Source of the DNA: Chitinophagaceae bacterium | Lineage (GTDB): Bacteria; Bacteroidota; Bacteroidia; Chitinophagales; Chitinophagaceae | Direction of reading: 5' to 3' | Assembly: GCA_041661485.1 (NCBI GenBank) | Contig: JBAZUJ010000014.1 | Location: forward strand, 9,102 to 73,101 | Length of the DNA: 64,000 nt | Position numbers and translations under genes: made by a program | Notes under the pieces: model-generated | The model's input: only the letters and a program-made list of their open reading frames with translations | Told to the model about the DNA's origin: nothing | Databases searched by the model: none | In this document: positions 39,447-64,000 of the stretch, piece by piece | How positions within the stretch are numbered: the stretch's first letter is position 1 | Layout of the letters: every line of letters begins with the position of its first letter

Positions 39447-39474
39447 CACAGAGCATTATCAAAGCTTTTAAATG

Positions 39475-41949: not shown

Positions 41950-42093
41950 CCGATAGAAGTTCGAAAATTAAGGGAGCAGTCAAGTATAAAGTGTAACGCC
42001 TGCGCTAGGTAGCGTAGGTGTTTGCTTTACTTGCTCCCAGGGTCTTCGAACACCTTATCGGCGAGAAAGAGCAAAGCCTGCGCTACCTTTTTT
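41950..42093 (+). promoter_or_regulatory. long imperfect inverted repeat with alternative terminator-like pairing upstream of island operon
   Basis: Hand-paired helices: 41950-41955/42056-42061, 41960-41965/42045-42050, 41972-41978/42032-42038, and the apical hairpin 41999-42006/42011-42018. Segment 42008-42018 can alternatively pair with 42077-42087, which is followed by T6. Confidence 0.3.
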
Positions 42094-42296
42094 ATTGCAG
42101 GTGAGTTAAAAAGTCATTTTTAAAACCTGGTTTGTGCTATATAAGCAAGTTGAGTAGACATCAAATAAATATTACATAAGCAAAAATTATTTACAAAGAT
42201 TTATTCTTGAAAACACAGTTTTCTAATTTTTCTGACAGACATTCACTGACCGTTTTAACAAAACAATAAGTTAAAGCAATAAATCAAATATTCCCT

Positions 42297-46913: not shown

Positions 46914-47499
46914 AGGACTGCTTATTCTTTTGACTTTACTATCCTGTAATAGCCCGGGTAATCTTTCTCCGGCTAACTATACTGCTTACCTGGAAAATCC
47001 TGAACATGATTTTTGCAGAAAAGTGGTGGTTGGTAACAATGAATATACGATTCAATTGGCTCCTGCTGAATACATGGTTTGTAAAGAAACGGAACAATCG
47101 GATTCTTCAAAACGGATAATGGCAGCACGCCTTAAAGAATTGGACGGCACTATATTTTTTTTAATAAAAATAGGCGCAACAAAGGAAAGCCGTATTCAGC
47201 AAGGAGGCAAACGAACGTCTGAAGAGCAAATTAATGCGAACGCAAAAGTTTCTTATTACGATCAGCTTGCTGTAAAAGATATTAGTCTGGAGAATGGAGA
47301 ACAAATGATCTATCCCTCTACTTATGTTTTTGAAAACAACTACGACCTGTCGCCCTTCAATACGATAGTTGTGGGCTTTGATGCGGTCACCACGGAGAAT
47401 TTGAAATTGACTTTTAATGACCGGTATACCGGTGTACCGGCTATACGTGCCTCTTTTTCCAAAGAGCAACTCACAAAACTACCTAAGCTTACTTTTTAA
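46897..47499 (+). CDS. hypothetical lipoprotein
   Basis: Lipobox LLTLLSC. Overlaps the upstream gene by 17 nt. Confidence 0.6.
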   Translation: MKKGIRGLLILLTLLSCNSPGNLSPANYTAYLENPEHDFCRKVVVGNNEYTIQLAPAEYMVCKETEQSDSSKRIMAARLKELDGTIFFLIKIGATKESRIQQGGKRTSEEQINANAKVSYYDQLAVKDISLENGEQMIYPSTYVFENNYDLSPFNTIVVGFDAVTTENLKLTFNDRYTGVPAIRASFSKEQLTKLPKLTF

Positions 47500-50500: not shown

Positions 50501-53500
50501 AGAACGGGCAGGAGTTTCGATGAAAGACAATTACCTGGAAAATCAGGAAGTGATTTATTACAGTTTCAATTTAGATATTAATGGGAAAGGAAGCTATGAA
50601 AATATAAAAGGCTATGCCAAGTTTGATGAAGTGGGTATTTGTACCGGGAATGATGATTATGGGTATGTAAGGCTATTAAGAGATGAGGCCGGAAATGCAA
50701 AATTTCATCCCGCTACCGTTTATGGCATAAACACAGCCAGGTATTATATTCCTCACATTTTTTATGATGGCTATGAAGAAAGCAGTGATTTGAAAAAGGT
50801 TGCCAAAGGATTGTTTGCTTCAGGAAAAGAAATGTTTGGCACAATCATTATGAGAAACCCGTTCAAACGCTGGGTTGGAGAAAAAAGAGGAAGGATTTTC
50901 AATATTGATCAATCCTTCATCAGGTTACATGCGCCGGATTTAGCTAAAAAAGGCGGCGGTATCAGGGTACGTCAGCTAACCCTTTCAGATAATTGGTCGG
51001 CATTGTCCGGTAATGAATCAGCTACTTACGGAAAGAAATATGACTACACCACTTCCATAGGTAATTATGGTGTAGTCAGTAGTGGTGTTGCTGTTTATGA
51101 ACCTATGATCGGTAACGATGAAAATCCGTTTCGTAAACCTGTTTTTTACGCAATGGATAAAGGCCGGTTATTACCAGCTGTAAATTTTTTCCAGGAAGAA
51201 CCCTTTGGTGAAAGCTTTTTCCCGAGTCCGGGTGTAGGCTATAGTAGTGTTAAAGTAACAAGCATTCATCAGGAAGAAGGTCGTTCAGCACAATCTATGG
51301 ATGAACATTTATTTTATACTGCAAAAGATTTTCCTGTTAAAATCGACTACACCCAAATCGGTGGAGATAAAAATTCATCTCAGCGTAAATTATTCAAGTA
51401 CACCAAGAAGGCCGAAGTTCTACAGGGTTATTCTTTGATTTTTAATGATATGCACGGCAAGCCTAAAGCCGTAAATAATTATACGATTCATCAGGATGGT
51501 TCTTCTGTTACGATGAAGAAGATTACAGGAGTTGCCTATAAATACTTTACTGATGCAAATGAAAAGAACCTTGATAATAAAGTAACAGCATTAGTCCGTA
51601 ACAGAGGAACAACCGATGGTTATGAAATAAGACAAGTGACCCTGGGTCAGGATATTGATGTCTCAATTGATAGCAGGCACAGGAAAACGCAAACCACTAC
51701 GACGCAAACAAACCTGAATCTTAATGTTTTTTTAATCGGGATATTCCCAATATTTCCGTTTACTGTTTTTCATACAGAAAAAGAAAAGAACCTTGAATTT
51801 GGCTCATTGGTCACAACCAAAATTGTTCAGCAATATGGCATTTTGAAGTCAATTGAGCAATTTGATCACGACGCGATTACCAAAACAGAAAATCTTGTTT
51901 TTGATGCAGAAACCGGGGGTGTTCTGTTAAGTAAGACCAATAATCAGTACAACGATAATATTTACACACGGAAAGATCCTGCCTATCTGGCTTACAAGGG
52001 GATGGGGCCGGCTTACACCAATATGGACTACGAGGAAACAGCTACGCTTGTGGTCGATAATGCCAGAAATGGATTTTTGCAAACTTCACACATGGAGAGA
52101 TTTGGACCCGGAGATGAAATTCTGGTTGATATTTCTGAACGTCTGGGCATGAGACTTGTAACATCTTATCTCAAAATCTGGATATTGAACGAAACCGGAG
52201 GCCGTGTCTGCAGGAAAGATACTGCAATCAGTAATGTTGCCTTTTGGAAAGCTTCTGACAGCTTATGTAATTGCAGCGAAGGATATTATTTTGAAGCCAT
52301 CTCCGGTTCAGTTTCCGTTTCAATTTACAAGAGTGCCACACCAAGCGTATTGTTTGCATCCGGCACATTAAGCAGTTCTGCTGTTATGCCTGCGCCAGCA
52401 TGTACGGAGTCGACAAAATTCTTAGGATTCAATCTCCCTCCTGGCAATTACAATTATACTTTGAGTGGTTCCGGTATTTATAATACAACTGGGTATTCGA
52501 GTCCCAAATCCGGGACATTTACGGTACCATCAACAAATGGTATCAGTATCGGATTGCAAAATTGCAGACAGGATTACAATGGCCCGCAACTTTATACATA
52601 TTGGACGACCACAGCTTGTACGTCACCGTTCACTCCTTGCATTCGCACAGGCATTACGGATTCTACAGGTCCATGTTCTTATGCAGTGGCGCCAAGATTT
52701 AAGGACGAATTTGATGCAGCAGATCTGACAAAAAACATCAGCAAATGGCCGACAACGGCAAAGACATTTAGCAATGTGCCAATAAAAGTATTGCGATCTG
52801 GAAGAAGGAATAACCTGGACAAAATGGTTCAGCAAATTGTATTTGCGGATCCGGCTAACAGGACATCTTATCCAACAGATACAAGAGGATACTTTGAAAA
52901 GTATGATAACGTTATTTCTGCCGGTGCAAATACTTTTACCGATACGGCTCAGAACTATGCAGGATTTGAAGACTCTGTTGTTATCCCTTATTTGAAAAAA
53001 TACAGAAAACTCAATGCATTTGTATTAGGGCTCAATGGCAATTACAGACCATCGGCTTCTTTTACACCCATTACCAAAAGAACTTACGCAAAAGAGCATA
53101 CCCGGTTTAATGGAACTTATACCATTGATACTCCGTTCTGGGTTTACCTGGCTCCTAAATGCCCTTACAAATGTGCCAGCGGACAAACAATAATGTCGCC
53201 AAATGAATTTACACAGATTCCATTCTGGAAAAGGGCGTCAACCATTACACGTTATGACCCTAATGGGAATGCCCTGGAAGAAAGGGATGTTTTGGGTAAT
53301 TACTCCTCCGCACAATATGGGTATAACAGGTTATTGCCTGTTGGGGTTGCTGCAAATGTCCAGGCCCAGCATTTTATGTTTGAAGGCTTTGAAGATTACA
53401 ATATGCTACTGCCGCAAAATACAGCGGAATTGTATAAAAAACGGCAGCTGCACAGCCTGCTGGGTTGGCCATTTGCCGAACCGGTTTCCAGTGTAACGGG

Positions 53501-54158
53501 CGCTTACCCTTCCGAACAATCATCAGGAGACCCTGCCGTATTTACAAGAAGCGGACAACGTTTTTACCTGATGCAAAAAGCTCCTTCGGGTTTGGGGATG
53601 GAACTAAGCAATGATGCAAGCCATACCGGTAATTTCAGCCTGAAATTCACCTCAACGAAATCTATTGATTTTGCCATTGCAGATAATAATCCAACAGCAA
53701 TAAGCCCTTTCACAATGGATCATGCGCAGAACTATTTAGTCAACTTCTGGGCTAAGTCGACAAGCGGTGCTGCTATAACTGCCGCATCATTTACAGCAAG
53801 TATTGCACCGTCCTCTACCAGTGGTACTGTTAGCGTAAAATCAGGCAATATCGATGGTTGGTATCTGGTGCAGATTAATCTTGACCTGAAACTGATTACC
53901 TCTGTGCTTCCGCTTACTGCAACAATAGACTTTCCTGCAGATATCTATGTGGATGACCTGCGCTTTATTCCTTCTCAATCGAACATGAAGAGTTTTGTGT
54001 ACGATCCTATCACTTTCAAGCTGATGGCTCAGTTAGATGAAAATCACTTTGCCACATTCTTTGAGTATGACCAGGAGGGATTGCTGATCAGGACCAAAAA
54101 AGAAACCAGTCGTGGTATAATGACTATCAGTGAAAGCAGAAGATCAAACGCAAAATAA
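47529..54158 (+). CDS. giant secreted protein with SpvB/TcB-like N-terminal region and C-terminal jelly-roll + YD-like terminus
   Basis: Signal peptide. SGPSQPEVESFEPVG..MVDMLSGDFNYNIPLMDVEGYPINIFYHSGVGIEQEASWVGLGWNINPGEINRSVRGLPDDF parallels the SpvB/TcaC N-terminal signature (G..F.....tG.f.y.IPl...g..P.L.Y.S......G.GW.l....I.R...G.P.Y). The C-terminus is ...VDDLRFIPSQSNMKSFVYDPITFKLMAQLDENHFATFFEYDQEGLLIR... Confidence 0.75.
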   Translation: MKKRFFKFIAKAMLVTLTYQLVFPACAYALTSGPSQPEVESFEPVGTTEMVDMLSGDFNYNIPLMDVEGYPINIFYHSGVGIEQEASWVGLGWNINPGEINRSVRGLPDDFNGEIIEKFTKLKEERDVRVGVGANIAAEAFGFDLSKMGIDISLGAGFYVAHNNYRGLSAGVSQSIGIKVGMVSTGITMGVGSQSGADVDLNVSASISQTYASANNSETSYGVSAGVGTGFNSRSGLKDISLSITPTQSYKYLKTKKNSDGTFTTKAHTANGGNDGGLNASIPVGLQNYVPVITNPMVQDAYGFQLKAGPEVYGGIVTLYLDVMLSNIKMENNGSRDGYGYLYSENAKKESIMDFSRDKDGAYNETMNNLPLSTNTYDIYSVNGQGTGGMFRPFRNDIGTIHDPYVDPGNESDNFRALVEVGATSLFEAGGDLTTVRTRNECGPWGRIAYGGDKPGTLYEKVFYKHGGDLSYNQQQETPQLFNLSTQYVAPDLNSLISHGFANIGSLPAEHNGTKIFWNNSVIDRSSRTTHIGYQTSEQIDKIPELPQSKKIVSYEPGSANHFYDPKVKEYNRSYKSKATLSGANHNAEPHHISVFTQTQADGRRYVYGIPAMNNATREVSFAVDESKANLANGYVGYTPGTDDGPGNEKGRDKYYSSTGTPAYAHSYLLTNVLSNDYVDILGDGVSDDDLGSFTKINYTLSDSDYRWRTPYHNDSAQFNPGFRSDSKDGKGNYLVGSRQQWYVRSVETKNYIAEFYTSKRKDAKGIQAAVLQSDSKIKTNKLNLKSAKSDTSYSYQLDSIRLYNKHDRYINKDNAVPVKTVVLQYDYSLCKNTPNSTASTKGKLTLKKIFIKYGNSQKNLLSPYTFEYNTSNPDYNFSAKDRWGNYKLALPGSRNNEFPYTAQPNNSTEAIDLNDQLSAWNLNDIKLPSGGKIHIDYESDDYAFVQDKRAMQMLKIAGVGSSKEFAPKNFLYTGQDNINDYVYFKRRKTKERAGVSMKDNYLENQEVIYYSFNLDINGKGSYENIKGYAKFDEVGICTGNDDYGYVRLLRDEAGNAKFHPATVYGINTARYYIPHIFYDGYEESSDLKKVAKGLFASGKEMFGTIIMRNPFKRWVGEKRGRIFNIDQSFIRLHAPDLAKKGGGIRVRQLTLSDNWSALSGNESATYGKKYDYTTSIGNYGVVSSGVAVYEPMIGNDENPFRKPVFYAMDKGRLLPAVNFFQEEPFGESFFPSPGVGYSSVKVTSIHQEEGRSAQSMDEHLFYTAKDFPVKIDYTQIGGDKNSSQRKLFKYTKKAEVLQGYSLIFNDMHGKPKAVNNYTIHQDGSSVTMKKITGVAYKYFTDANEKNLDNKVTALVRNRGTTDGYEIRQVTLGQDIDVSIDSRHRKTQTTTTQTNLNLNVFLIGIFPIFPFTVFHTEKEKNLEFGSLVTTKIVQQYGILKSIEQFDHDAITKTENLVFDAETGGVLLSKTNNQYNDNIYTRKDPAYLAYKGMGPAYTNMDYEETATLVVDNARNGFLQTSHMERFGPGDEILVDISERLGMRLVTSYLKIWILNETGGRVCRKDTAISNVAFWKASDSLCNCSEGYYFEAISGSVSVSIYKSATPSVLFASGTLSSSAVMPAPACTESTKFLGFNLPPGNYNYTLSGSGIYNTTGYSSPKSGTFTVPSTNGISIGLQNCRQDYNGPQLYTYWTTTACTSPFTPCIRTGITDSTGPCSYAVAPRFKDEFDAADLTKNISKWPTTAKTFSNVPIKVLRSGRRNNLDKMVQQIVFADPANRTSYPTDTRGYFEKYDNVISAGANTFTDTAQNYAGFEDSVVIPYLKKYRKLNAFVLGLNGNYRPSASFTPITKRTYAKEHTRFNGTYTIDTPFWVYLAPKCPYKCASGQTIMSPNEFTQIPFWKRASTITRYDPNGNALEERDVLGNYSSAQYGYNRLLPVGVAANVQAQHFMFEGFEDYNMLLPQNTAELYKKRQLHSLLGWPFAEPVSSVTGAYPSEQSSGDPAVFTRSGQRFYLMQKAPSGLGMELSNDASHTGNFSLKFTSTKSIDFAIADNNPTAISPFTMDHAQNYLVNFWAKSTSGAAITAASFTASIAPSSTSGTVSVKSGNIDGWYLVQINLDLKLITSVLPLTATIDFPADIYVDDLRFIPSQSNMKSFVYDPITFKLMAQLDENHFATFFEYDQEGLLIRTKKETSRGIMTISESRRSNAK

Positions 54159-54168: not shown

Positions 54169-54873
54169 ATGAAAAAATCATTTCTGACAATTTTAATTTG
54201 TTGTGCATCCTGTTCAGGATTTGCCCAGGTTTTCTGGCCTTACACACAATTATTTAATCAATTGAAAACAAGCACACAATCACAAATGACCTACAATTAT
54301 AAGGTTATACTCATTGATGTGAAGACGGGAGTGGCGGTGGATAGTATGTTTGGGTTACTTGCCTGTAAGGACAAGAAATTCCTCGATAGTAACTCACTCT
54401 ATTTTATGGCAAAAACTGAAAAAGAGTATTGCAAGTTTGATCATACAGACCAGACTGCCATGGTATTTGACCTTAAAGATTTATCCAAAAAAATGAAGTT
54501 GCCTCTCATTGATGAGCCCAATAAAATGATTTCCATTTCAGAGGATTTTATTTCAGATGAAGGTGGAAAGATTGAATATGATTTCAGAAATAATTTCTAT
54601 TACCGCCTGAAGTTTACGCCGAAAAATCAGGCCCTTTATTATGGACATGTTGATTTCAATAAACAGAATCACAGTTTTATAGGGGCTTATCTCGAAATGG
54701 ATGATGTGAATCCTGTTGAAAACACGCACTTCCGAAAGGCAGTTTATATCTACAATGTCAGCTTCAAAGTCAATGATGCCGTATTCAATATGGCAAGGTA
54801 TTATACCATTAGAAAAGGGCAGCTTTCAATGGGAAAGCAATACAGTACTTATAAAATCACTAAAATACTATAA
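54169..54873 (+). CDS. hypothetical secreted protein between the two giant genes
   Basis: ATG 54169 gives the signal peptide MKKSFLTILICCASCSGFAQ and lies 10 nt after the upstream stop codon. The track start 54130 would overlap the 2209-aa CDS. Confidence 0.6.
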   Translation: MKKSFLTILICCASCSGFAQVFWPYTQLFNQLKTSTQSQMTYNYKVILIDVKTGVAVDSMFGLLACKDKKFLDSNSLYFMAKTEKEYCKFDHTDQTAMVFDLKDLSKKMKLPLIDEPNKMISISEDFISDEGGKIEYDFRNNFYYRLKFTPKNQALYYGHVDFNKQNHSFIGAYLEMDDVNPVENTHFRKAVYIYNVSFKVNDAVFNMARYYTIRKGQLSMGKQYSTYKITKIL

Positions 54874-54883: not shown

Positions 54884-57800
54884 ATGAACAGGAGATTATG
54901 GCTTATAATCGGATTGGTATTATACAATTCAATTTGTTTTGCGCAGGATTTCAAATTTTTCCCGGATAAGTTTACACGAAGGGTTTCCAGTGGTCAAATT
55001 GCTGCGGGTGGTACATTTCCATATCTGATGATTCAAACTGAGAATGACATGTGGGGTGATATGACTTCCGACCCTTTTTTCGATTCTAAGCATCAGTTTA
55101 AAAATGTCGAAGATATTGTTCGGGTGGGGATCCGGCACGATACGGGTGTTATCATTCCTGCGTACAAGTATCAGGTTAGTTTTGAAATTACCTGTTATGA
55201 TTATCATTCGCCATGGAGTCCTGTAATTAAAAATACCACCCTTGAGTTCTCTTATAACCCGGATTCTCTAACACAATATAAGGATCTGGTTTTATACAGG
55301 TTTACAGGATACCATGCTATTCAGGTTACAATTACAGGAATAGATGATGTGACTTCAGGACCTCCTTCATCGTTGGTGGCTGCTGCTATTGCCAAAAATT
55401 TCTATGTAGAATCAGAAGTTTCAGTCCATCGCTATGATCTTACACCACAATTTGTAGTAATGGGAAATAATCCTTCCCCTGATGGAAAGGAGTTGAAGGT
55501 CTTTTGGGAAATGTTTGACGTCGGATCTCCGGTCACCTGTCCTTTAACAACTCCGGGTGGCGGGAATGATTTTAAGCCTGCTATTTATGAATTGGAGTGG
55601 TGCTATATTGATGATTACCAATATGACTTTTCCACTAATGATAGTTCTTATGCTTTTTCAACTCCCGGAAATATTAATTATGATTTCAGGAAAAACAGTA
55701 CCAGGGTACAGATTAGTAAAGGCCGCTCATTCAGTATCCCATTAATTTACGAACATGGAGCAATAGTTTATCGTGTCAGAGCAATCAGGCCCGATGCTAC
55801 CCGATATAAAGATATCGAAATCGGGGGATGGACCCTTAGTGATTATGGCACGGTAGATGCAAGTGCATCCTGCTTCTCCAAAGAAGGGTTTTTAATTACT
55901 GATGCCCATTTGCATGATAGTATGAATTGGCAGTACACTATCAATTTTGCCGAAGAAGGGAAGTACAAGCACGTCATCAATTATTTTGACGGCTCTTTAA
56001 AAGACCGGCAGACCCAGACAAAAATTAATACCGATAATGGCTATGTTATAGCTGTTGATAAAGTATATGATTATGAAGGCCGGCCTTCACTTGTCTCTTT
56101 ACCAACCCCTGTTTATGGCCAGGATAACCTTCAATACCGTTCGGATATTTTATTGAATACTGCTACCGGTAATCCATACAAAGCAGCTGATTTTGATTTT
56201 ATAGGTTGCAGCCGGCCCGATTCCATACCTTATTTGTCCACATCGGCTCAGGCTAATATCTATTATTCTCCGCTCAACAGCGACCAGGCAGACATGCAAA
56301 AATTTGTTCCGGATGCTGAAGGTTACCCAATGGTTCAAACAATCTACTCGCCTGACAATACCAATAAAGTATTATGGCAGGGTGGAGCCGGACAGGAACA
56401 GCAAATCTGGAAAGGACATGCTACGCAGTATGAATATTCAAGGCCCAATCAAAAGGAAATTGACCGGTACCTGGGTACAGAAGTAGGTATAGCACAATTC
56501 TATCCGAAACAAGTTGTGACCGATCCGAACGGACAATCCAGTTATTCTATTTTAGACCCTTCAGGTAAAGTGGTTATTTCCGGGCTTCAGGGGCCAAGTC
56601 CCGACTCCTCACAAATTCCTGTTGATACCCTGGCTAATTTCGTAAGAGGCAAATCAGAGTGTGACGACTTGCTTGAAGGTTATACCCAGGAGAATTCAGG
56701 GAACAGTAAAAAAGCGCAACTACCTGCTTATAATGATGAATACGGAGACGGCACATTTAAATATAGCGTGCGCACGTTTCCTTTTGATACAAGATGTGCC
56801 GGTCAATACCTCTGGGTTCCGGCTGCTTATACAATGAAGGTGACTAACGATTGCGGTGTTATCAAAAATAATACTACAGGTATTGCGGGCGAACATAAAG
56901 TAACTCCTTCTGATGGTTCTGCTTATGAAGTTTCAAGCCAGGTCGTTACAGGTATGTCTAAAGGGAATTACCTGGTCAATAAGGAACTTTCCTTTTCGGA
57001 AAAGGAAGTGTATAATATGGTGGACAGTTTTGTTTATGCGAACGAACCTGCTTGCTATAATGACGTACATTATTTTATTAAAAAGACCATTGACTCCACT
57101 AAATTTCCCTGTGAAGGCTTTGTAGATACCAACACCAGCCATTGTGATCAGATGAAGAAGCTGATGATGGCAGAAATGTATCCGGGCGCTAAGTATGGTA
57201 AATATTTTAAGGACAGTTCAGGTGCGTTTGCAGGAGGTTACGATAATTCAATATTTACAACAAAAGTAAAACCTTATCTTACAACTGCTCCCCCAAAGAG
57301 TGTTGTTAAGTTCCTTGCCCGTACGGGTTGTGACCCTACTTTACAGGACACGCTGGCTCATGGCTCTGTTGATACTGCCTGGAAGTTTTCAACCAATTTG
57401 ATTGGTCCCTATGTTTGTTCAGTTTTTGATCCTATCCGGACCCGGGATTCTCTTACGCTATATGGAGGTAATATCACAGCAGATAATACACTTCCTGCCC
57501 ACTATAATCTCACTGCCGGGTATACCATACGCCATGGGATGTATTCGGGAGCCGCTTCATGGAAAACGAGTGTTTATATTGACAGCACAGTACCGCTTGA
57601 TATGGTATACGCTTATTTTATGTACGATGACGAGGCCGAAAATCTCATCGTTAATGGCGTGGTAAATGAACTTGATCATGGGATTTATTATTATTCTCAT
57701 GGCTACAATTACAATGTCAAAGGTTTTCATCATGGATATAATGATATTACCGTTACAGGTTACGATTGGCTGGCTATGCCAACAGGTGTGACCCCGGAAG

Positions 57801-60800
57801 CTTTCTTTGTTCCGGCTGCATATACACCGGATGGGGACCGCATTTTTGCTATGAATGCTGCTTCATTACTGGGTGTGATTGCATCCTATGATACCAGCGG
57901 ATATCGTTATAGGGACTCCTGTATTAAATTACCCGATTCTGTCGTAAAAGACGGCAAAGTGTACAAGAACTTAAAAAACCTGCCTGTTGAAGTCCTGATT
58001 GAAATTTTCAATGATGACATTGCAGAAGCTCTGCTGCCTTTGCATCCTGAATATTGTAAATTACTGAATTGTAATGATGCTAATTTTGACCAGACCCTGG
58101 CGGAAACGATCAGTTTTCAACAGGCAGAAAACAATAACATGTTTTACCTGGACTCGCTGATAGCCCACGATCCGCTGGTCTTATTGGGAGGTGGTCTTGC
58201 AACAGCACACCGCTTAAAGTACATGAAAGGATTTTTAGGTAAACGAATTGATTCGCTCGCCATGGAGCAAACCTACTGTGGTGCCGGAAACGGGGAAGAA
58301 TACGCCTACTGTGTTGCAAAAGATTATAAGTATCAGATCGACAACTTTATTTTTGCCAGCGATGATATCAGGCAAACTTATTTCACCAATCTGAAAAGCC
58401 TGTATATCGGTAATCGCGCACTGATCAAACAAGGAAAATTAGACTCTACAACTTCTTCATGCGTGAAGTGTGCAAGCAATCGTATGACTCAAAAAGGATT
58501 ACCCGTATTCCACACCCTTGACAGTATGTTTAATTCTGTCGGAATGGGTTCATCATCCGGCGGAGGAGACGGTGATGGAGATGAGCAATTACCTGAATGG
58601 ATGAGGGAGAAGTTTAAAAAAGCAAAAGACAATGACTCTGTGGGCATGTCCACCGTTCCGGGACCACTGAAGGATTCTATGTTTGTGTTAGATTATGATT
58701 TCGCAGAAATTCAGGCCATTTCTGTTAAGAAACATTTGCTCAATTGTACATTGGATACTGCTGTACAAAACAGGATTTATAAAGCAACCATAAATGTACT
58801 GATGAGTGGCAGGAAACTTACACCAGCCATTATGACCAGTATCATCACCGATACAGTTTCCCTGGCTATAACCGATCTTTGCCACCCTTTCCTGGTCGCT
58901 TACGATCTCATTCCGGATACCAGGGAAGCTACTACGCATTATTCATGCGGCACTATAGAACTGTATGAAGGGTTGCGCGATTTTCTGCAAAGGCCACAGG
59001 TGACCAATGAATTGAAAAATGCCACAACTTCGCTCTCAGGAGGAACCTCTGTTCCCGGTCCCTATAATGTATTCGAATCCCAGTTTTCTTCGGGACCCGC
59101 TATTAATGTATCGACCTATATGGACGGTACTTCGCTGGTATGTTCCACCTGTTATGTCAACCTGATTGTTTCTTCCAATCTTAAAACAGATACTTTCCAT
59201 ATCTCTCCTGCAAACTATGGTGCCACACCCGATATTGCAACGTTCCTGAGCAGCGTAAGCCCGGTCAACACAATAGTAAACGCACGTTGCCTCAATAGTC
59301 TGGCAACGGCTATGGCCACCGGTGTGGTGGCAAAAAATACTGCTGTGATTGAGGCCGGACAGGCTTTCACTTCTACTTCGGATGCCTATTTCATCTGGAG
59401 TCACAACACCACTTTTATGGAGGATGCGCCGTCTGTTACCACACTCAAAAACAGTGTTACCTGCCAGGATATAAAAGCCGCGTTGGAAGACTTTAATGCA
59501 GAACAATCCAGCTATGGATATTCGGAGGCTACCAACCATCCTTTGTATGAATATACGGTAACCAACTATCTCAATTTCAAGCTGAATAAAAGCTACTATT
59601 TCGCCGACTACGAAAAATTGATGAATGGTTGCGCGGTTACAGATAAAGTGCTGCTGAAAAGATTAATTACGACCTATAGAATAGAATTCAGTTCTGATGC
59701 GGACGCTACAGGATTTACAACTGCCTTGCACGCTTATGGTGAATATAAACCTGACTATCTGCGATACAAACTCACATCGGGCAATCCGGTTGTGTTCGTC
59801 AACTTCAGTTCTTTAGACAACGATACCTTATTGGCCTATAAGCAAATGATTGACGGATACACCACCGGCGTGGTTTCCCGCAATTATAATTACAATCCTG
59901 CAGATGCCAATACCAATCTTTTGTTTGCGTCATCATCCTGCTCTTTCAATCCTTCATCCTACGCACCGATATACACTACAGACGATGTGGCGGTCTGGGA
60001 AGATGGGGCTTACAATTCCGCTTACAAATTACACACCTTCCGCTTGTCTTTTGCTTCACCCATACAGGAAGCCGATAACCAGGCCGATATCGAAAAATAT
60101 CTCCACGATCTTACGCTGGTTTCTTCTCCGATGTGTAATGTGGGTTATAGCTTTTATGGTCAGGAATTATTCCGCAGCAGCGATTATGCAACAGCATTAA
60201 AAACGGAGTACCTCAATTTTGTCTATGGGCTTTCCGGCACGCACGATGCTATTATAGCAGACATTGACCCGGCCAACCTTCCTGCCAATATACCATCTTA
60301 CTCCGGCTCGATTTTCACCTACGACGATCCTTATTGTCGCGGCAGCCGCACGAACGTGTATGCTTTTAAAACCGCACCATCGCCATTACCTCAGGGTATG
60401 GACTCAATCAGAAACAAGATTTTGGCCAATGTAGGATCTGTATTGTTCCCCAACCAGGATTTTACCTATGTATCCGGAATGGGAAGCCGACTGGCAGTAA
60501 TCCGCAAAGCAAACGGAGACTATTGGTACCGCTATTTCGACCTTGGCAATCACTTATATAATATCTTCATTACACCGCCATCGCGCAGCCTGGGCATCCC
60601 ATGGGAAAATTTCACCTTCTCCCTGTCAGACCTTGAGGCAGGACCGCATCCCAATACTTTTGTTGTAGAGGTTACATCCGGCAGCCATACAGTGAGATGC
60701 AACGGGTACGCTGAATTTATGGTGTCCGACCGCTCGGTTGTAGCCGAAAATGTGATACTCGATAAAGATCCGAAAGGGGTGTATTGCTTTGATAGTCTTG

Positions 60801-63800
60801 ACTGCGAGCACGATCTCCTTGCCAGGGCTATCCGCAATGGGCAGGCTAGTTACCGCAGGCATTTCGATTCTACGGTGAAGCAGATCAGTGGTGATATGAT
60901 GACCCACCTGATGACCACCACTAAGGACTCGCTCGTGTTTTGTGGGCAAAGGCAGCAATACCAGCAGACTTTGTATTATTACGATCTTGCCGGAAACCTC
61001 ACTTCCACGGTGCCACCCGCTGGCATCGAAACCGTGCCTGACAATCGCTTAAATGAAGTCAAAATCAACCGCAGCATTTCAGCGCCCGAAACAGCAATGA
61101 CCACGCATAAAAAAACATCTGTCTACCGCTACAATTCGCTCAATCAGCTGGAGTATCAGCACACTCCGGATGGTGGCACTACGGTGTTCTTTTATGATGC
61201 AGCCGGCCGGCAGATATTCTCGCAAAGCAGCCGGCAAAGGCCTTTTGGTACTTATTCTTACAGCATTTACGATGCACAGGGACGCCCCGAGGAGTCCGGC
61301 GAATTTCAGGCAGGATGTACCTATACACCCGACCCCCTGGTAGACTTCGACACCACCGCATGCACCCTGGGTTCTGTTACCGCCGCACATCCGCCTTTCA
61401 TCCGGTATTCGTTCAATGACATGGTGTATCATTACGATACGCTGAAAAGTATGATACGGGCCAAAGACCGCACAGAAGTGGTACGCACCTCTTATGACGA
61501 AGCACCTATCGACCTCAGCACTATAATCAGCTATCTGCTCAAGGCACAGGAGAATCTCCGCAACAGGGTAGCGGCAATTCAGTACTATGATAACATAGAA
61601 TCATATCTCACTAATCCCTCGCTGCCCGGCCCTACCTTTGCCACTTATTACAGTTACGATATTGGTGGCAATGTCAAAAACATCGTCTACGATTATCCCT
61701 ACCTGGGTCGTTTTCAGCAGCAATTCAAATCCATTGATTATGATTTTGATCTTATCAGTGGAAAAGTAAACATGTTGAGTTACAACCCCGGTTATCCCGA
61801 CCAGTTTTATCAGCAATATGAATATGATGCAGATAACAGGATTACGAAGGTGTTGACAAGTAATGACGGCCTTATCTGGAACAATGATGCGCAGTATGAA
61901 TATTACAAGCATGGGCCGCTGGCGCGCCTGAAACTGGGCGAGCATCAGGTACAGAGCCTGGAGTATGCCTATACCATACAGGGCTGGCTCAAAGCCATCA
62001 ACGGTGACCTGTTGAATCCTGATTTGGAAATGGGTAGCAATGGTCGTAGCGGAGATATGACCTTTTCAAGAGATGTTATAGCACATGCCCTGAGGTATTT
62101 TGAAAAAGACTACAAATCTATCAGCAGTACAGCGGTGACGAATCTTACTGCCAGTACAGCAAAGAACCTGTATAATGGCAACATCACGCAGCAGACCACA
62201 GGGATTGGCGGATTGGGCAATATGCAGCGCGTATATCAGTACGACCAGTTGCAAAGGCTCAAAATGACAGGTAACGTCACAGTGGATGATTATACACCTG
62301 CCCTGGCCTCCACACCTGCCGATTTGTTCAAAAGTACTTATGCCTACGACATGGATGGTAATATCTCCGCCCTTCAGCGCTGGGATGGCACATCGGGCAG
62401 CCCTGTGCAGATCGACAATTTCAGCTATACCTACGATCCTGCCACGCCAAACAACAGGCTGACGCAGGTACGCGACCTGGCGGCTCCTACAGCAGGCACC
62501 GACCTGCAGCCGGGCCAGGTGAGCGACAACTATGTGTACGACCCATCGGGCAACCTGGTGGAAGACAAACAGGCGCAGAGCATCATTGCCTGGGACAGAT
62601 TTGGCAAAGTGAAAAGCATACACCAGAATGCGACCAGCCAGGCAATCAAATTTAAGTACGATGGCAAGGGCAACCGCATATGGAAAGATGTGATAAACCC
62701 TGACCTGGCTATAATAATGGACCCGCCGGAAGTGCACCAGGCGGAATATTATGTACGGGATGCCGGTGGCAACATTTTGGCAACCTATCATACCTGGTTT
62801 AAAGACCAGCCATCCGGACCACTTTCTTACGCGCTGCCCGGCGACACCTTTAGCCTGGCCGAACACCATATCTACGGTAGCAGCCGACTGGGTGTACACC
62901 GCTACGACAGTACCAGCCTTTCTAACAGGATAATGCCCCTGCCGGGCGAAGCTCCGCAAACCGTGCTGAACACACAGGTGCAATGGTACAGCTATGCTTA
63001 TACCGACATGATAGACATTGGCTATACCGAGCCTTATGGCACAGCCGGCAACACATTTTTGGGAGATTTAACAACATCCCGTACCTTAGGGCGTAGATAT
63101 TATGAGTTGACCGACCATTTAGGGAATGTGCTGGCTACCGTGCTGGACAGGAAGACCGGAGCCGGAACGCTATCAGGAAGCAGTGGAACATTGTATGACC
63201 ACTGGTCTGCTGACTTAGCGAGTACGGCTGATTATTACCCGGGTGGTATGATGATGCCGGGAAGGAATACAGAGCATAGCTGGAGCAGGATGGGGTATAA
63301 TGGACAGGCCAAAGATGATGAGGTGTACGGAAAAGGTAATTTGAATACTGCTTTGTTCTGGGAAATGGATACGAGGATATTAAGGAGGTGGAATTTTGAT
63401 CCAGTACTGAAGCCATGGGAAAGTAGTTATGCAGTTTTCGCAAATAGTCCTATAGTAATGGTTGATCCGCTTGGAAATACAAGTTTTTACAACACAAGCG
63501 GGGTATTTATCGGGTCGGACTGGATTAATAATAATATAAAGTTGATGGCAGTAAATGAAGCAACTGTAAAAAATATAATTGCAAATACACAGTTGTCTAT
63601 ATTGGGTTTGCCAGTTGTAAGATATAATGAGCAAAATAAATCCCAATTTGACTTATTTCCCGTTGTTTCAGAGTCTGAGATAGAAGGGATGGAAAAGGTG
63701 TATGATGTCTCATTTTCTAAATCAACAGAAAATGGGATGGTTGGAGGAGCAAATAATAGTGGCGGGAGAAGCGCAAAAGTTAATGTAATGGGATCTCTAA

Positions 63801-64000
63801 ATGCTAGTTTTAATGGAACTGAATTAACAAGATCATTTTATAAATCAGAAAGGAGGCCAACAGAATATGATGGGCATTCTCATCCCCCTATCTTTAGATA
63901 TTTGGGTGACGATAAATTTTCTATATCGAGTTTTACGTCTAGTCTAGCGGATAGAGATGGTGGATTTGGGACTTCCGGTCTTGGTGTTGTTTTTGGTTGG
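54884..64000 (+). CDS. giant RHS/YD-repeat polymorphic toxin precursor (3' end beyond window; at least 3039 codons)
   Basis: Hand translation of the frame from ATG 54884 to base 64000 found no stop codon. Signal peptide MNRRLWLIIGLVLYNSICFAQ. DUF6443-like segment (NWQYTINFAEEGKYKHVINYFDGSLKDRQTQTK...YDYEGRPSLVSLPTP...DPNGQSSYSILDPSGKVV). YD repeats from ~60971 (YYYDLAGNLTST, YRYNSLNQLEYQHTPDGGTTVFFYDAAGRQ, YSIYDAQGRPEE ...). RHS core RRYYELTDHLGNVLA (63092-) ...YYPGGMMMPGR...GYNGQAKDDE...RRWNFDPVLKPWESSYAVFANSPIVMVDPLGN (ends 63478), followed by a C-terminal variable domain. Confidence 0.9.
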   Translation, partial: MNRRLWLIIGLVLYNSICFAQDFKFFPDKFTRRVSSGQIAAGGTFPYLMIQTENDMWGDMTSDPFFDSKHQFKNVEDIVRVGIRHDTGVIIPAYKYQVSFEITCYDYHSPWSPVIKNTTLEFSYNPDSLTQYKDLVLYRFTGYHAIQVTITGIDDVTSGPPSSLVAAAIAKNFYVESEVSVHRYDLTPQFVVMGNNPSPDGKELKVFWEMFDVGSPVTCPLTTPGGGNDFKPAIYELEWCYIDDYQYDFSTNDSSYAFSTPGNINYDFRKNSTRVQISKGRSFSIPLIYEHGAIVYRVRAIRPDATRYKDIEIGGWTLSDYGTVDASASCFSKEGFLITDAHLHDSMNWQYTINFAEEGKYKHVINYFDGSLKDRQTQTKINTDNGYVIAVDKVYDYEGRPSLVSLPTPVYGQDNLQYRSDILLNTATGNPYKAADFDFIGCSRPDSIPYLSTSAQANIYYSPLNSDQADMQKFVPDAEGYPMVQTIYSPDNTNKVLWQGGAGQEQQIWKGHATQYEYSRPNQKEIDRYLGTEVGIAQFYPKQVVTDPNGQSSYSILDPSGKVVISGLQGPSPDSSQIPVDTLANFVRGKSECDDLLEGYTQENSGNSKKAQLPAYNDEYGDGTFKYSVRTFPFDTRCAGQYLWVPAAYTMKVTNDCGVIKNNTTGIAGEHKVTPSDGSAYEVSSQVVTGMSKGNYLVNKELSFSEKEVYNMVDSFVYANEPACYNDVHYFIKKTIDSTKFPCEGFVDTNTSHCDQMKKLMMAEMYPGAKYGKYFKDSSGAFAGGYDNSIFTTKVKPYLTTAPPKSVVKFLARTGCDPTLQDTLAHGSVDTAWKFSTNLIGPYVCSVFDPIRTRDSLTLYGGNITADNTLPAHYNLTAGYTIRHGMYSGAASWKTSVYIDSTVPLDMVYAYFMYDDEAENLIVNGVVNELDHGIYYYSHGYNYNVKGFHHGYNDITVTGYDWLAMPTGVTPEAFFVPAAYTPDGDRIFAMNAASLLGVIASYDTSGYRYRDSCIKLPDSVVKDGKVYKNLKNLPVEVLIEIFNDDIAEALLPLHPEYCKLLNCNDANFDQTLAETISFQQAENNNMFYLDSLIAHDPLVLLGGGLATAHRLKYMKGFLGKRIDSLAMEQTYCGAGNGEEYAYCVAKDYKYQIDNFIFASDDIRQTYFTNLKSLYIGNRALIKQGKLDSTTSSCVKCASNRMTQKGLPVFHTLDSMFNSVGMGSSSGGGDGDGDEQLPEWMREKFKKAKDNDSVGMSTVPGPLKDSMFVLDYDFAEIQAISVKKHLLNCTLDTAVQNRIYKATINVLMSGRKLTPAIMTSIITDTVSLAITDLCHPFLVAYDLIPDTREATTHYSCGTIELYEGLRDFLQRPQVTNELKNATTSLSGGTSVPGPYNVFESQFSSGPAINVSTYMDGTSLVCSTCYVNLIVSSNLKTDTFHISPANYGATPDIATFLSSVSPVNTIVNARCLNSLATAMATGVVAKNTAVIEAGQAFTSTSDAYFIWSHNTTFMEDAPSVTTLKNSVTCQDIKAALEDFNAEQSSYGYSEATNHPLYEYTVTNYLNFKLNKSYYFADYEKLMNGCAVTDKVLLKRLITTYRIEFSSDADATGFTTALHAYGEYKPDYLRYKLTSGNPVVFVNFSSLDNDTLLAYKQMIDGYTTGVVSRNYNYNPADANTNLLFASSSCSFNPSSYAPIYTTDDVAVWEDGAYNSAYKLHTFRLSFASPIQEADNQADIEKYLHDLTLVSSPMCNVGYSFYGQELFRSSDYATALKTEYLNFVYGLSGTHDAIIADIDPANLPANIPSYSGSIFTYDDPYCRGSRTNVYAFKTAPSPLPQGMDSIRNKILANVGSVLFPNQDFTYVSGMGSRLAVIRKANGDYWYRYFDLGNHLYNIFITPPSRSLGIPWENFTFSLSDLEAGPHPNTFVVEVTSGSHTVRCNGYAEFMVSDRSVVAENVILDKDPKGVYCFDSLDCEHDLLARAIRNGQASYRRHFDSTVKQISGDMMTHLMTTTKDSLVFCGQRQQYQQTLYYYDLAGNLTSTVPPAGIETVPDNRLNEVKINRSISAPETAMTTHKKTSVYRYNSLNQLEYQHTPDGGTTVFFYDAAGRQIFSQSSRQRPFGTYSYSIYDAQGRPEESGEFQAGCTYTPDPLVDFDTTACTLGSVTAAHPPFIRYSFNDMVYHYDTLKSMIRAKDRTEVVRTSYDEAPIDLSTIISYLLKAQENLRNRVAAIQYYDNIESYLTNPSLPGPTFATYYSYDIGGNVKNIVYDYPYLGRFQQQFKSIDYDFDLISGKVNMLSYNPGYPDQFYQQYEYDADNRITKVLTSNDGLIWNNDAQYEYYKHGPLARLKLGEHQVQSLEYAYTIQGWLKAINGDLLNPDLEMGSNGRSGDMTFSRDVIAHALRYFEKDYKSISSTAVTNLTASTAKNLYNGNITQQTTGIGGLGNMQRVYQYDQLQRLKMTGNVTVDDYTPALASTPADLFKSTYAYDMDGNISALQRWDGTSGSPVQIDNFSYTYDPATPNNRLTQVRDLAAPTAGTDLQPGQVSDNYVYDPSGNLVEDKQAQSIIAWDRFGKVKSIHQNATSQAIKFKYDGKGNRIWKDVINPDLAIIMDPPEVHQAEYYVRDAGGNILATYHTWFKDQPSGPLSYALPGDTFSLAEHHIYGSSRLGVHRYDSTSLSNRIMPLPGEAPQTVLNTQVQWYSYAYTDMIDIGYTEPYGTAGNTFLGDLTTSRTLGRRYYELTDHLGNVLATVLDRKTGAGTLSGSSGTLYDHWSADLASTADYYPGGMMMPGRNTEHSWSRMGYNGQAKDDEVYGKGNLNTALFWEMDTRILRRWNFDPVLKPWESSYAVFANSPIVMVDPLGNTSFYNTSGVFIGSDWINNNIKLMAVNEATVKNIIANTQLSILGLPVVRYNEQNKSQFDLFPVVSESEIEGMEKVYDVSFSKSTENGMVGGANNSGGRSAKVNVMGSLNASFNGTELTRSFYKSERRPTEYDGHSHPPIFRYLGDDKFSISSFTSSLADRDGGFGTSGLGVVFGW

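Follow-up and report, generated by a model that had tools for sequence, protein, structure and literature searches.

A giant RHS protein with a signal peptide is encoded in a conserved envelope gene cluster of Chitinophagaceae

RESULTS

A seven-gene cluster of envelope proteins

The window (the whole stretch of 64,000 nucleotides analyzed here) carries a cluster of seven genes that is conserved and has never been described before. The RHS gene is its last member, a context that the original prediction had not seen and the most informative feature. Its members, designated here by product size or family, are as follows.

42297 to 45215, plus strand: first cluster gene, encoding a 972-aa putative outer-membrane beta-barrel protein
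45256 to 46422, plus strand: 388-aa exported protein with an N-terminal hydrophobic signal ending ...ASAQ
46422 to 46913, plus strand: 163-aa candidate OmpH/Skp-like periplasmic chaperone, assigned by Pfam OmpH
46897 to 47499, plus strand: 200-aa probable lipoprotein (MKKGIRGLLILLTLLSC...), assigned by a lipobox-like LLSC
47529 to 54158, plus strand: 2209-aa exported partner protein, recognized by the conservation of its homologues upstream of the RHS gene
54169 to 54873, plus strand: 234-aa LolA3-family periplasmic protein, assigned by NCBIfam LolA3_fam
54884 to 64000, plus strand: giant RHS gene, codons 1 to 3039 of 3104, running off the window end

Across this operon, which extends from position 42297 to beyond position 64000, intergenic gaps range from -17 to +40 nucleotides, a terminator-like hairpin lies directly upstream, and export signals are present on 7/7 of the encoded proteins. 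A search of the 64-kb window for the attR copy that an island hypothesis would call for found no repeat of the tRNA-Ser 3' end.

The 972-aa protein consists of a signal peptide, a Lys-rich, coiled-coil-like middle, and a beta-rich C-terminal half whose end reads ...LGLSWQF plus 11 aa. It had no match in Pfam, NCBIfam, or the PDB, and its 25 homologues are all "hypothetical" apart from one whose UniRef name begins "Outer membrane protein beta-". Single members of the family weakly match Porin_4 (0.008) and Surface_Ag_2 (0.002), weak hints that suggest an outer-membrane location, and a homologue holds the equivalent position at three further loci (L003, L084, and L085). The 388-aa protein, for which family scans gave no match, has a homologue at most Chitinophagaceae loci. 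Pfam OmpH matched the 163-aa protein with 37 bits (cutoff, 32.4; E value, 4.7e-9) and also matched its orthologues in L002, L084, and L085. In the 200-aa protein, which was likewise without a match in family scans and is conserved in position, the lipobox-like LLSC follows a short hydrophobic signal. The order of the cluster genes is maintained beside unrelated neighbors in L084 and L085. The only universal part of the cluster across loci is the trio of partner, LolA3-family, and RHS genes, to which the Chitinophagaceae operon adds the putative outer-membrane protein, the 388-aa protein, the Skp-like protein, and the lipoprotein; tblastn searches for the 388-, 163-, and 200-aa genes were negative in the majority of the distant Saprospiraceae and Flavobacteriales loci.

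The partner and LolA3-family genes

A homologue of the 2209-aa partner is encoded upstream of the RHS gene in 68/68 loci with sufficient upstream DNA, and the partner measures ~2000 to 2300 aa across the family. The core of the protein (aa ~1 to 1550) is conserved and its C-terminal third is variable, with YD-like hairpins at the extreme C terminus; a single hydrophobic segment inside the protein, at aa 1396 to 1416, is conserved. Its family comprises at least 3641 proteins, nearly all of them unnamed or "hypothetical" and two bearing domain-based UniRef names; among the homologues listed, just one carried a Pfam domain. Neither the single sequence nor a 30-sequence profile matched any PDB sequence, and no relationship between the partner and the RHS protein could be detected, including by hhalign against the RHS shell.

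The LolA3-family reading frame is open from a GTG at 54130, and the ATG at 54169 yields the signal peptide MKKSFLTILICCASCSGFAQ. The match of the window copy to LolA3_fam (NF053579) is weak (21.1 bits; E value, 1.9e-4; cutoff, 83) and runs end to end, pairing residues 1 to 230 with positions 1 to 231 of 232. Positional orthologues matched LolA3_fam in 38/45 cases (best E value, 4.2e-36) and LolA1 in 4/45, and a signal-peptide protein of 205 to 300 aa occupies this position in ~77 loci. In the window copies, LolA3, DUF6443, and the RHS core each fall short of their curated cutoffs, and the evidence for them is strong only at the level of the family.

The RHS gene is intact

Retranslation of the window from the ATG at 54884 to base 64000 gave 3039 codons and no stop, as the original prediction had stated. 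The window's own protein is present in the database at its full length of 3104 aa, which leaves 65 residues beyond the window and places the true stop ~195 nucleotides past its end. The start codon is supported by the family alignment, in which M1 is almost invariant, and by the conserved end of the signal peptide, and lies 10 nucleotides beyond the end of the LolA3-family gene at 54873. Relatives with 59 to 60% identity align collinearly across 2864 residues, and neither translation nor these alignments revealed an internal stop or frameshift. The RHS gene is thus one intact gene for a 3104-aa protein with a signal peptide.

Its absence from the supplied list of open reading frames had been ascribed to the missing terminator, and this is correct, since the lister leaves out any frame that runs off either window end. 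In its place the list shows short plus-strand frames, such as those starting at 57402 and 59850 (both offset +1), together with antisense frames. The six plus-strand starts quoted in the original prediction do share one frame, but all are offset by +1 from the RHS frame, so they are overlapping shadows and not fragments of the gene.

Domain layout of the RHS protein

The protein encoded by this gene is divided as follows.

54884 to 54943, plus strand: signal peptide, aa 1 to 20 (...ICFA, followed by Q), from sequence
54944 to 55903, plus strand: N-terminal all-beta domains, aa 21 to 340, from an AlphaFold model with block pLDDT mostly 72 to 95
55922 to 56599, plus strand: DUF6443-like segment and YD-like hairpins, aa 347 to 572, from Pfam DUF6443 and column identity
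56690 to 57178, plus strand: predicted Cys-containing beta-sandwich and three helices, aa 603 to 765, from alignment and model
57281 to 57898, plus strand: variable insert, aa ~800 to 1005, from BLAST coverage and column identity
57986 to 58858, plus strand: conserved helical domain, aa 1035 to 1325, from the predicted model and invariant residues
58940 to 60748, plus strand: three predicted alpha/beta and beta-rich domains, aa 1353 to 1955, from a model with pLDDT mostly 80 to 95
60803 to 60919, plus strand: predicted long helix, aa 1974 to 2012, from alignment and model
60959 to 63268, plus strand: YD-repeat shell, aa 2026 to 2795, from Pfam RHS_repeat, TIGR01643, and profile search
63269 to 63475, plus strand: RHS-associated core with autoprotease residues, from TIGR03696 and residue conservation
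63464 to 63475, plus strand: predicted cleavage site ...MVDPLG, aa 2861 to 2864, from core residues
63476 to 64000, plus strand: putative C-terminal toxin domain, aa 2865 to 3104, its last 65 aa outside the window

Signal peptidase I substrates of Bacteroidota often have Gln as their first residue, and the signal peptide here ends in a conserved A/G-Q, with Q21 present in 42/44 members of the RHS family. Scans of aa 21 to 340 against Pfam and NCBIfam gave no match, so that a signal peptide and a stretch of about 340 aa outside known families, both anticipated from the sequence, were borne out. So was the DUF6443-like segment: with aa 225 to 575 scanned, DUF6443 (PF20041) matched the window copy in two stretches (aa 354 to 433 and 437 to 518) with 25.5 bits against a cutoff of 27.8, and it matched 20/22 relatives (best E value, 4.2e-11). 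Nowhere else in the N-terminal region is conservation as high as in residues 347 to 572, where column identity is 0.56 to 0.72. Because comparison of the DUF6443 segment with the YD-shell repeats gave a single weak hairpin match (E value, 0.011; probability, 4%), that the N-terminal part may form the first turn of the shell is something we infer from fold matches to SGS1, RhsA, and teneurin.

The ~1450 aa between this segment and the shell had been described as Cys containing and free of recognizable motifs. Profile scans of aa ~570 to 2030 indeed returned nothing recognizable: the region has no sequence match in Pfam, NCBIfam, or the PDB, and ahead of the first YD hairpin the family profile matches nothing in the PDB. 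The region is nevertheless conserved, Cys rich, and confidently predicted to fold. In the beta-sandwich and helices at its start, C638, C724, C743, and C754 are invariant in the family. The insert that follows occurs in only the ~12 closest relatives, with BLAST coverage falling from 119 subjects to between 11 and 18 and column identity at about 0.1. The helical domain bears the motifs LPLHPEYCKLxxC (aa 1050 to 1063) and CxxC (aa 1193 to 1196) and resembles no fold in the PDB or BFVD at an E value of <=1e-3, and the fold search with aa 1353 to 1955 returned just weak, generic ferredoxin-like matches. The long helix begins at the invariant pair C1974-E1975 and runs into the shell. A self-BLAST of the 3104-aa protein, run as a check for internal repeats, gave no off-diagonal matches, and the middle region is therefore no repeat array.

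Among 44 family members, 19 cysteines are conserved, all of them within aa 442 to 1974. Overall, conservation across a large Bacteroidota family extends through the first 2000 residues, for which the fold prediction is confident. Structure prediction covered the non-shell regions on both sides of the variable insert and the first YD hairpins (aa 2029 to 2094). In these models the N-terminal 800 aa are beta rich and closest to the giant Rhs protein SGS1 (E value, 1.6e-9, at a low TM-score of 0.18 and with no residue mapping), and the next ~1000 aa have no structural relatives.

The shell, the core, and the C-terminal domain

YD repeats and core come last, as predicted, and extend from aa ~2029 to the DPLG at 2861, or ~830 aa (the earlier figure was ~700). 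The window copy was matched by RHS_repeat (PF05593; 28 bits; cutoff, 22) and TIGR01643 (20.8 bits; cutoff, 15.8), and the family profile matched the solved Rhs structures 8h8a (2.7e-15), 7q97 (8.6e-14), Tse5 (2.6e-11), and YenC2 (4.9e-10). The shell is compact, with shell and core together amounting to 846 aa, versus 1100 to 1490 in most relatives. In the core, TIGR03696 gave 11.7 bits against a cutoff of 32.5, in the expected place (aa ~2800 to 2865) and over profile positions 13 to 75 of 76, and the tail of the family core matched the core of SGS4 at an E value of 0.0011 and that of YenC2 weakly. The core of the window copy reads ...RRWNFDP...MVDPLG, and its putative autoprotease residues are R2831 (42/44 members), D2839 (44/44), and D2861 (37/44, with Glu in 3 more), with G2864 in 40/44. 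These sequence matches identify the C-terminal third as an Rhs/YD shell that carries the conserved autoprotease Arg/Asp/Asp and leads to a variable tip of toxin type.

Conservation of the RHS family stops sharply at aa ~2865. Beyond this point, relatives carry Ntox43, Tox-REase-5, HNH, Tox-MPTase3, PT-HINT, lysozyme, and other tips; small ORFs come after their RHS genes, and orphan core-tail cassettes lie downstream in loci L001 and L003, four extra ones in each. The tip of the window protein is of a rare type, matching 15 representative clusters among 1.84 billion, mostly C-terminal pieces of RHS proteins. One 1437-aa protein, in which 13 stretches matched the domain, was set aside as a repetitive low-complexity artifact. 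Neither the individual members nor their profile matched anything in Pfam or the PDB. Four residues (E2949, H2998, H3000, and D3023), all inside the window, are invariant in 14 sequences of the domain and point to toxin activity, and because of this invariant E/HxH/D set the domain is probably a metal-dependent hydrolase. The arrangement is JAB/MPN-like (E...HxH...SxxD, with Ser usually three residues ahead of Asp). A JAB/MPN (JAMM) identity has support from the motif and found none in the Pfam and PDB searches; the spacing from HxH to SxxD exceeds the canonical JAB/MPN spacing.

Spread of the family

The RHS family comprises 423 proteins at an E value of <=1e-3, and the same layout was found at 112 loci in species-representative genomes, mostly of Chitinophagaceae. 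Cultivable carriers are Taibaiella, Edaphocola aurantiacus, Rurimicrobium arvi, and the Chitinophagaceae strains LGM1 and MMS25-I14. The layout is thus the fixed architecture of a large family, and its original description as unusual would hold only by contrast with the short DUF6443-RHS proteins of Bacteroidota (PF20041 plus PF05593), and not in the sense of a one-off. Those proteins also place a DUF6443-like segment ahead of their YD repeats, but in them, as the original prediction states, DUF6443 would normally abut the shell, whereas here ~1450 aa lie between the two and ~340 aa precede DUF6443.

DISCUSSION

In our reading, to which we give a probability of about 0.6, the open reading frame encodes a giant, functional polymorphic toxin of the RHS type and is the final structural gene in an envelope operon of seven genes. 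The protein is probably disulfide stabilized and probably relies for export or delivery on the envelope proteins encoded with it. It would cross the inner membrane via Sec and fold in the periplasm or outside the cell, with disulfides forming across its Cys-rich first 2000 aa; the 19 conserved cysteines suggest such oxidative folding outside the cytoplasm. By analogy, the shell would enclose the C-terminal domain, which would be cleaved off at DPLG. The RHS protein and the 2209-aa partner would be moved to the cell surface by LolA3, the Skp-like protein, the lipoprotein, and the putative outer-membrane protein, and there the non-shell domains may mediate attachment or delivery to a competitor cell, and an immunity gene just beyond the window end would protect the producer.

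A bolder version, which we offer tentatively and at odds somewhat against it, is that the cluster constitutes an unrecognized, self-contained, Sec-dependent Bacteroidota pathway that carries both the giant RHS protein and the 2209-aa partner through the outer membrane for display, with LolA3 as a dedicated periplasmic chaperone, possibly shielding the conserved hydrophobic segment of the partner, and the ~1450-aa novel-fold insertion as a device for target recognition or translocation. LolA3 paralogues that belong to the same family as the gene upstream of the RHS gene are Fjoh_0605 of Flavobacterium johnsoniae and PGN0947 of Porphyromonas gingivalis, for which there is a crystal structure, and the cluster protein shares the type I signal peptide known from LolA3. 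These paralogues show no gliding or T9SS phenotype and very weak LolB binding and have been assigned no function, and an RHS context is not mentioned in either report (PMC11885536, PMC13103446). In P. gingivalis, LolA3 may well not be part of a cluster of this kind. Literature searches on DUF6443, Chitinophagaceae Rhs, signal-peptide Bacteroidota Rhs, and Fjoh_0603-0607 found nothing relevant.

Comparison with classical Rhs toxins (RhsA of Pseudomonas protegens, 7q97; Vibrio Rhs, 8h8a; and Tse5, 8cp6) shows a common shell and Arg/Asp/Asp core, a cleavage motif ending in DPxG, a variable C-terminal toxin, and, in relatives of the window protein, orphan downstream cassettes. Classical Rhs toxins, however, are 1100 to 1600 aa long, lack a signal peptide, and travel by the T6SS via PAAR/VgrG, whereas the RHS protein here has 3104 aa, a Sec signal, ~2000 extra aa of conserved, Cys-rich domains ahead of the shell, and an envelope operon of its own. 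Mosquito SGS1 (8fjp) is likewise a giant Rhs/YD protein (~3300 aa) with non-shell domains on or in the shell, and its inserts comprise beta-propellers, a CBM, a lectin, and a wedge (PMC9935623). The middle 1000 aa of the RHS protein differ from these inserts in being predicted as helical plus alpha/beta and in matching nothing.

The RHS protein and its partner could instead be exported by the general T9SS, with the cluster genes supplying accessory factors such as chaperones and anchors, a reading that we regard as unlikely. Por_Secre_tail proteins lie within a few kilobases of the cluster at L085, and such lineages encode T9SS-type cargo; but neither Por_Secre_tail (type A) nor type B sorting domains were detected by Pfam or NCBIfam on the RHS protein or the partner, and no T9SS sorting domain was found on the cluster proteins with a model that does detect the L085 neighbors. 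Since a variable toxin domain appears to occupy the C terminus of the RHS protein, there is no room for a conserved sorting domain, and deletion of lolA3 in F. johnsoniae left the T9SS unaffected (PMC11885536). The TANFOR toxins of Bacteroidetes offer a precedent: like the RHS protein, they are large and carry Sec signals, a conserved N-terminal region of unknown function, and polymorphic C-terminal toxins. Immunity genes lie downstream of them, and the T9SS has been proposed as the route by which they cross the outer membrane (PMC7073777). They differ in having another N-terminal domain, no RHS cocoon, and neighborhoods rich in SprB/T9SS cargo, and the NCBIfam TANFOR model matched neither the whole RHS protein nor its aa 1 to 339.

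It is rather improbable that the cluster encodes a Tc-like (ABC) complex directed against eukaryotes, with a TcA- or TcB-like partner and the RHS protein as a TcC-like cocoon that is released and not displayed. The match of the family shell profile to the TcC protein YenC2 (4igl), a Tc-toxin BC cocoon, fits such a complex, as does the structural match of the N-terminal 800 aa to SGS1, itself a Tc-like Rhs/YD cocoon with shell-inserted domains. The partner also ends in YD-like hairpins, and its N terminus (...GDFNYNIPL...YHSG...WVGLGWNI...R..GLPDDF) resembles the N-terminal motif of SpvB/TcB. The SpvB model of Pfam, however, does not match the partner even at an E value of <=1, the Pfam models for SpvB, TcdB, and TcA matched neither the RHS protein nor the partner, and the 30-sequence partner profile found no Tc component in the PDB; hhalign also showed no relationship to the RHS shell, so that an SpvB/TcB-like identity of the partner was not supported, and a TcA-like partner was not detected here. 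Tc components are not known to have the Sec signals that all seven cluster proteins carry. Relatives of the RHS protein, moreover, have orphan cassettes and typically antibacterial tips (nucleases and lysozymes).

A nontoxin surface or structural role like that of teneurins or SGS1, with the C-terminal domain serving adhesion or signaling, is very unlikely. The C-terminal domain of the window protein matches no toxin family, and the 2000-aa N-terminal region resembles display or binding domains; against this, relatives with an equivalent body bear bona fide toxin tips and orphan cassettes, an E/HxH/D set of catalytic appearance is invariant in the tip family, and the autoprotease Arg/Asp/Asp residues are conserved here, whereas teneurins lack the last Asp (PMC9935623). 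Most characterized Gram-negative Rhs toxins are type VI secretion effectors, and the nearest solved shells by sequence profile (8h8a, RhsA 7q97, and Tse5) are such effectors, but that the RHS protein is one too is barely credible given its Sec signal peptide, whose Gln at the cleavage site is conserved, its 19 conserved cysteines, the absence of PAAR, VgrG, or other T6SS domains on the protein or in the cluster, and the envelope proteins encoded by the flanking genes.

Gram-negative Rhs toxins are understood almost wholly through the T6SS and Tc complexes. The toxin reading preferred here concerns a large, widespread Bacteroidota RHS family that has Sec signals and conserved cysteines as well as ~2000 additional residues, of which half lack structural relatives, and that is tied to a fixed envelope gene set named in no database. 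If this linkage is functional, it would point to a route for cocoon-toxin export and delivery that is independent of the T6SS and probably of the T9SS, give LolA3 a concrete, testable job, and provide several new domains for structural work. Should the self-contained pathway prove true, an orphan LolA3 paralogue would gain a function and polymorphic toxins a new route of export and delivery. Chitinophagaceae of soil and fresh water frequently carry the family, often with several copies per genome, and it thus likely matters for competition in such communities.

An intact giant RHS gene

The RHS gene is intact; its product has an Rhs shell, conserved autoprotease residues and a variable tip. 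As the original prediction had claimed, one giant open reading frame (ORF) runs from ATG 54884 to the end of the window; translation of 54884-64000 (+) gave 3039 codons with zero stops. The presumption that this ORF went unlisted for want of a terminator was also right, as the ORF lister leaves out ORFs running off either end. Its listing for the 54.9-64 kb stretch gives short ORFs only, the plus-strand ones being at offset +1 relative to the giant frame and therefore its shadows. The full-length product is present in the protein database (P0001, the window's own RHS protein; 3104 aa, on a 75,998-bp contig), and thus the window lacks the last 65 residues only.

The start codon assignment is sound, with 10 nt between the end of the preceding gene and the ATG, a nearly invariant M1 in the family alignment, and a conserved A/G-Q at the signal-peptide end (Q21 in 42/44 sequences). 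Alignment with relatives of 59-60% identity is collinear over 2864 residues, and nothing suggests a frameshift, a pseudogene or a split into two genes. Minus-strand ORFs opposite the RHS gene at 59036-59539 (167 aa) and 62066-62983 (305 aa) were treated as antisense shadows of the long stop-free coding frame.

Family, shell and toxin tip

A homologue search with aa 1-2030 returned 423 proteins, nearly all of 3000-3550 aa, with the organism-named members coming from Chitinophagaceae and related Bacteroidota. The window protein is not a one-genome curiosity; it belongs to a large and as yet uncharacterised family of giant RHS toxins from Bacteroidota that are probably exported. In single-sequence scans, Pfam RHS_repeat scored 28 bits (above cutoff), NCBIfam gave no match, and DUF6443 appeared as two sub-threshold pieces (aa 354-433 and 437-518). 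Across the family, 20 of 22 members matched DUF6443; the window copy scored 25.5 bits (cutoff 27.8). The segment layout first proposed is correct, its DUF6443 and Rhs assignments holding at the family level.

Conservation, mapped by BLAST coverage of 119 relatives and a 44-sequence alignment, extends over aa 1-790 and 1005-2860 in all 119 relatives and ends at aa ~2865 by both measures. An insert of ~200 aa rich in Tyr, Gly and His (aa ~800-1005; 57281-57898) occurs solely in the ~12 nearest relatives and may provide a further binding domain. A profile of aa 2025-2870 matches solved Rhs cocoons (8h8a, 2.7e-15; RhsA 7q97, 8.6e-14; Tse5, 2.6e-11) and the TcC protein YenC2 (4.9e-10). The core itself is very divergent (TIGR03696, 11.7 bits); the window copy keeps the ...MVDPLG motif and autoprotease residues R2831, D2839 and D2861, which are conserved in 42/44, 44/44 and 37(+3)/44 sequences, respectively. 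Its shell-plus-core is compact, at 846 aa versus 1100-1490 aa in most relatives, and most relatives carry an extra 250-650 aa at an indel hot-spot in the shell (aa ~2637-2653; ~62795-62840). By analogy with the SGS1 wedge domain, this extra sequence may be another inserted surface domain, which the window copy lacks.

The tip, aa 2865-3104, has no Pfam or PDB match, and an exhaustive HMMER search across 1.84 billion representatives returned no more than 15 clusters, most of them RHS C-terminal pieces in which a core tail (...NNPIxFIDPxG) precedes the tip domain. E2949, H2998, H3000 and D3023 are invariant in the tip alignment, usually with a Ser three residues before the Asp. These residues look like a JAB/MPN-type metal site; member-wise Pfam scans and a PDB profile search did not support a JAB/MPN fold. 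The tip is thus rare and unclassified and, from its residue pattern, probably a metal-dependent hydrolase. On the same body, relatives have the known tips Ntox43, Tox-REase-5, HNH, Tox-MPTase3 and lysozyme, and four extra core-tail cassettes lie 3' of the main gene in each of two related loci (L001 and L003). Varied known tips and extra cassettes are also typical of classic Rhs polymorphic toxins.

Regions outside the shell

Two AlphaFold models, based on alignments of the family, cover aa 20-820 (mean pLDDT 82; almost entirely beta up to aa ~705) and aa 1001-2100 (mean pLDDT 79; 854/1100 residues at >=70). In these models, the sequence outside the shell folds with confidence and is without known relatives.

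Modelled parts of the RHS protein outside the shell
aa 20-820: two beta domains; DUF6443 region with hairpins, e.g., VYDYEGRPSLVSLP; Cys-containing beta-sandwich; then three helices
aa 1035-1325: helical domain with invariant LPLHPEYCKLxxC and CxxC motifs
aa 1353-1955: several alpha/beta and beta-rich domains
aa 1974-2012: long helix
beyond the helix: first YD hairpins

The top Foldseek match of aa 20-820 was mosquito SGS1 (8fjp; E 1.6e-9, probability 1.0, 755 columns), followed by FN3/MG-type beta-sandwich arrays; RhsA, teneurin-4 and an N-terminally extended Rhs of Salmonella bongori matched weakly. SGS1 itself, at ~3300 aa, is a Tc-like Rhs/YD cocoon with receptor domains inserted into its shell (PMC9935623). 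By analogy, we infer that aa ~350-575 may begin the shell or plug and that aa 575-2030 may form a giant insertion; when their profiles were compared, the DUF6443 segment and the shell shared one insignificant hairpin match only. The aa 1001-2100 model had no match at E<=1e-3 among PDB and predicted viral structures, and the family profile of this region matched no PDB sequence before the first YD hairpin. The original description of a ~1450-aa Cys-containing stretch with no recognised motif was right. Self-BLAST found no internal repeats in the RHS protein. Nineteen cysteines are conserved in at least 39/44 sequences, all within aa 442-1974, with none at that level in the shell. Taken with the signal peptide, these conserved cysteines point to oxidative folding outside the cytoplasm.

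A fixed accessory operon

Seven genes on one strand, with gaps of -17 to +40 nt, end with the RHS gene, and all seven products have N-terminal export signals.

Seven-gene cluster in the window
42297-45215 (+): 972 aa, putative outer-membrane protein; only weak outer-membrane hints in its family
45256-46422 (+): 388 aa
46422-46913 (+): 163 aa, above the Pfam OmpH cutoff
46897-47499 (+): 200 aa, LLSC lipobox
47529-54158 (+): 2209 aa, partner
54169-54873 (+): 234 aa, probable LolA paralogue
54884 onward (+): RHS gene

A homologue of the 2209-aa partner lies upstream of the RHS gene in all 68 loci with enough upstream DNA, and a signal-peptide protein of 205-300 aa lies between the two in ~77 loci; the partner-LolA3-RHS trio is strictly linked. 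The 234-aa window copy aligns end to end but weakly with NCBIfam LolA3_fam (21 bits), while 38/45 of its positional orthologues match LolA3_fam (best E 4.2e-36) and 4/45 match LolA1, identifying the family by profile as a LolA paralogue. LolA3 (Fjoh_0605, PGN0947) is reported as a paralogue without a gliding or T9SS phenotype, with a more polar cavity, only very weak binding to LolB and "a separate function"; the neighbours of LolA3 genes are not mentioned in these reports (PMC11885536, PMC13103446).

The partner family has at least 3641 matches, none functionally named, and a Pfam domain is absent from all but one listed homologue; the 2209-aa protein has no PDB relatives, even by profile. 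A conserved stretch of the family includes its aa 1396-1416 (51714-51776; NLNVFLIGIFPIFPFTVF), the sole strongly hydrophobic segment inside either of the two giant cluster proteins; this segment could insert into a membrane or bind a chaperone and, more speculatively, might be a LolA3 client. A highly conserved N-terminal motif (aa ~40-110; 47650-47850), ...GDFxYNIPLxDVEGYPINISYHSG...WVGLGWNINPGEINRxVRGxPDDF, resembles the SpvB/TcB N-terminal motif, a likeness that HMM and profile searches did not confirm.

Possible mechanism

The RHS protein would be exported by Sec with formation of disulfides, and its tip would be encapsulated and then released at DPLG. LolA3-like and Skp-like chaperones, the lipoprotein and the putative outer-membrane protein may bring both giants to the surface, where the non-shell domains could serve attachment or delivery; immunity may be encoded downstream of the RHS gene, past the window end. 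The T9SS might be the export route, although scans revealed no sorting domain. A Tc-like complex of the RHS protein and its partner is echoed at the fold level, but neither SpvB nor TcA gave a signal. The signal peptide, cysteines and gene context contradict a T6SS effector; a non-toxic surface protein is contradicted by conservation of the protease residues and by the toxins at the tips of relatives.

TANFOR toxins run parallel to these proteins in Bacteroidetes: they have Sec signals and no known route of export (PMC7073777), but are built on another domain. No paper in the searchable library mentioned DUF6443 or such a locus. With its novel, putative 1450-aa insertion and fixed accessory operon including LolA3, the family opens LolA3 function and the export of Rhs toxins outside the T6SS to direct testing.

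Distribution and genomic setting

A scan of species-representative genomes gave 112 related loci (80 fetched) in Taibaiella, Flavipsychrobacter, Edaphocola, Rurimicrobium, Sphingobacteriales, Saprospiraceae and Flavobacteriales, with two or three copies in some genomes; the nearest is in Bacteroidetes bacterium UBA7688 (95% identity). Most Chitinophagaceae loci with the trio also have the 388-, 163- and 200-aa genes. The full seven-gene order recurs in loci L084 and L085, and all but one gene in L003, next to unrelated neighbours; therefore, the module is self-contained.

In the window, tRNA-Ser(gga) (39360-39447) is directly followed by a tyrosine integrase (39658-40923; Phage_integrase, SAM_5 and Arm-DNA-bind_5 domains) and then the RHS cluster, an arrangement that resembles a genomic island inserted at the tRNA gene and bearing the entire cluster. 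The window has no second copy of the tRNA-Ser 3' end, and GC content is not clearly different. The 1.37 kb between integrase and cluster (40924-42296) matched no Rfam families and holds a 112-aa ORF (41087-41425) and, ahead of the cluster, a strong terminator-like hairpin with a 12-bp stem (41995-42022). In L084, from a 4-Mb genome, a two-component system of a HisKA_3 kinase and a GerE/LuxR response regulator (2751-4197) lies directly upstream of the seven-gene cluster and possibly regulates it. A 17-kb contig (L007; JASGCQ010000058.1) with a Bacteroidota-type cluster of 67% identity occurs in a MAG labelled Phycisphaerales (Planctomycetota) and is probably mis-binned.
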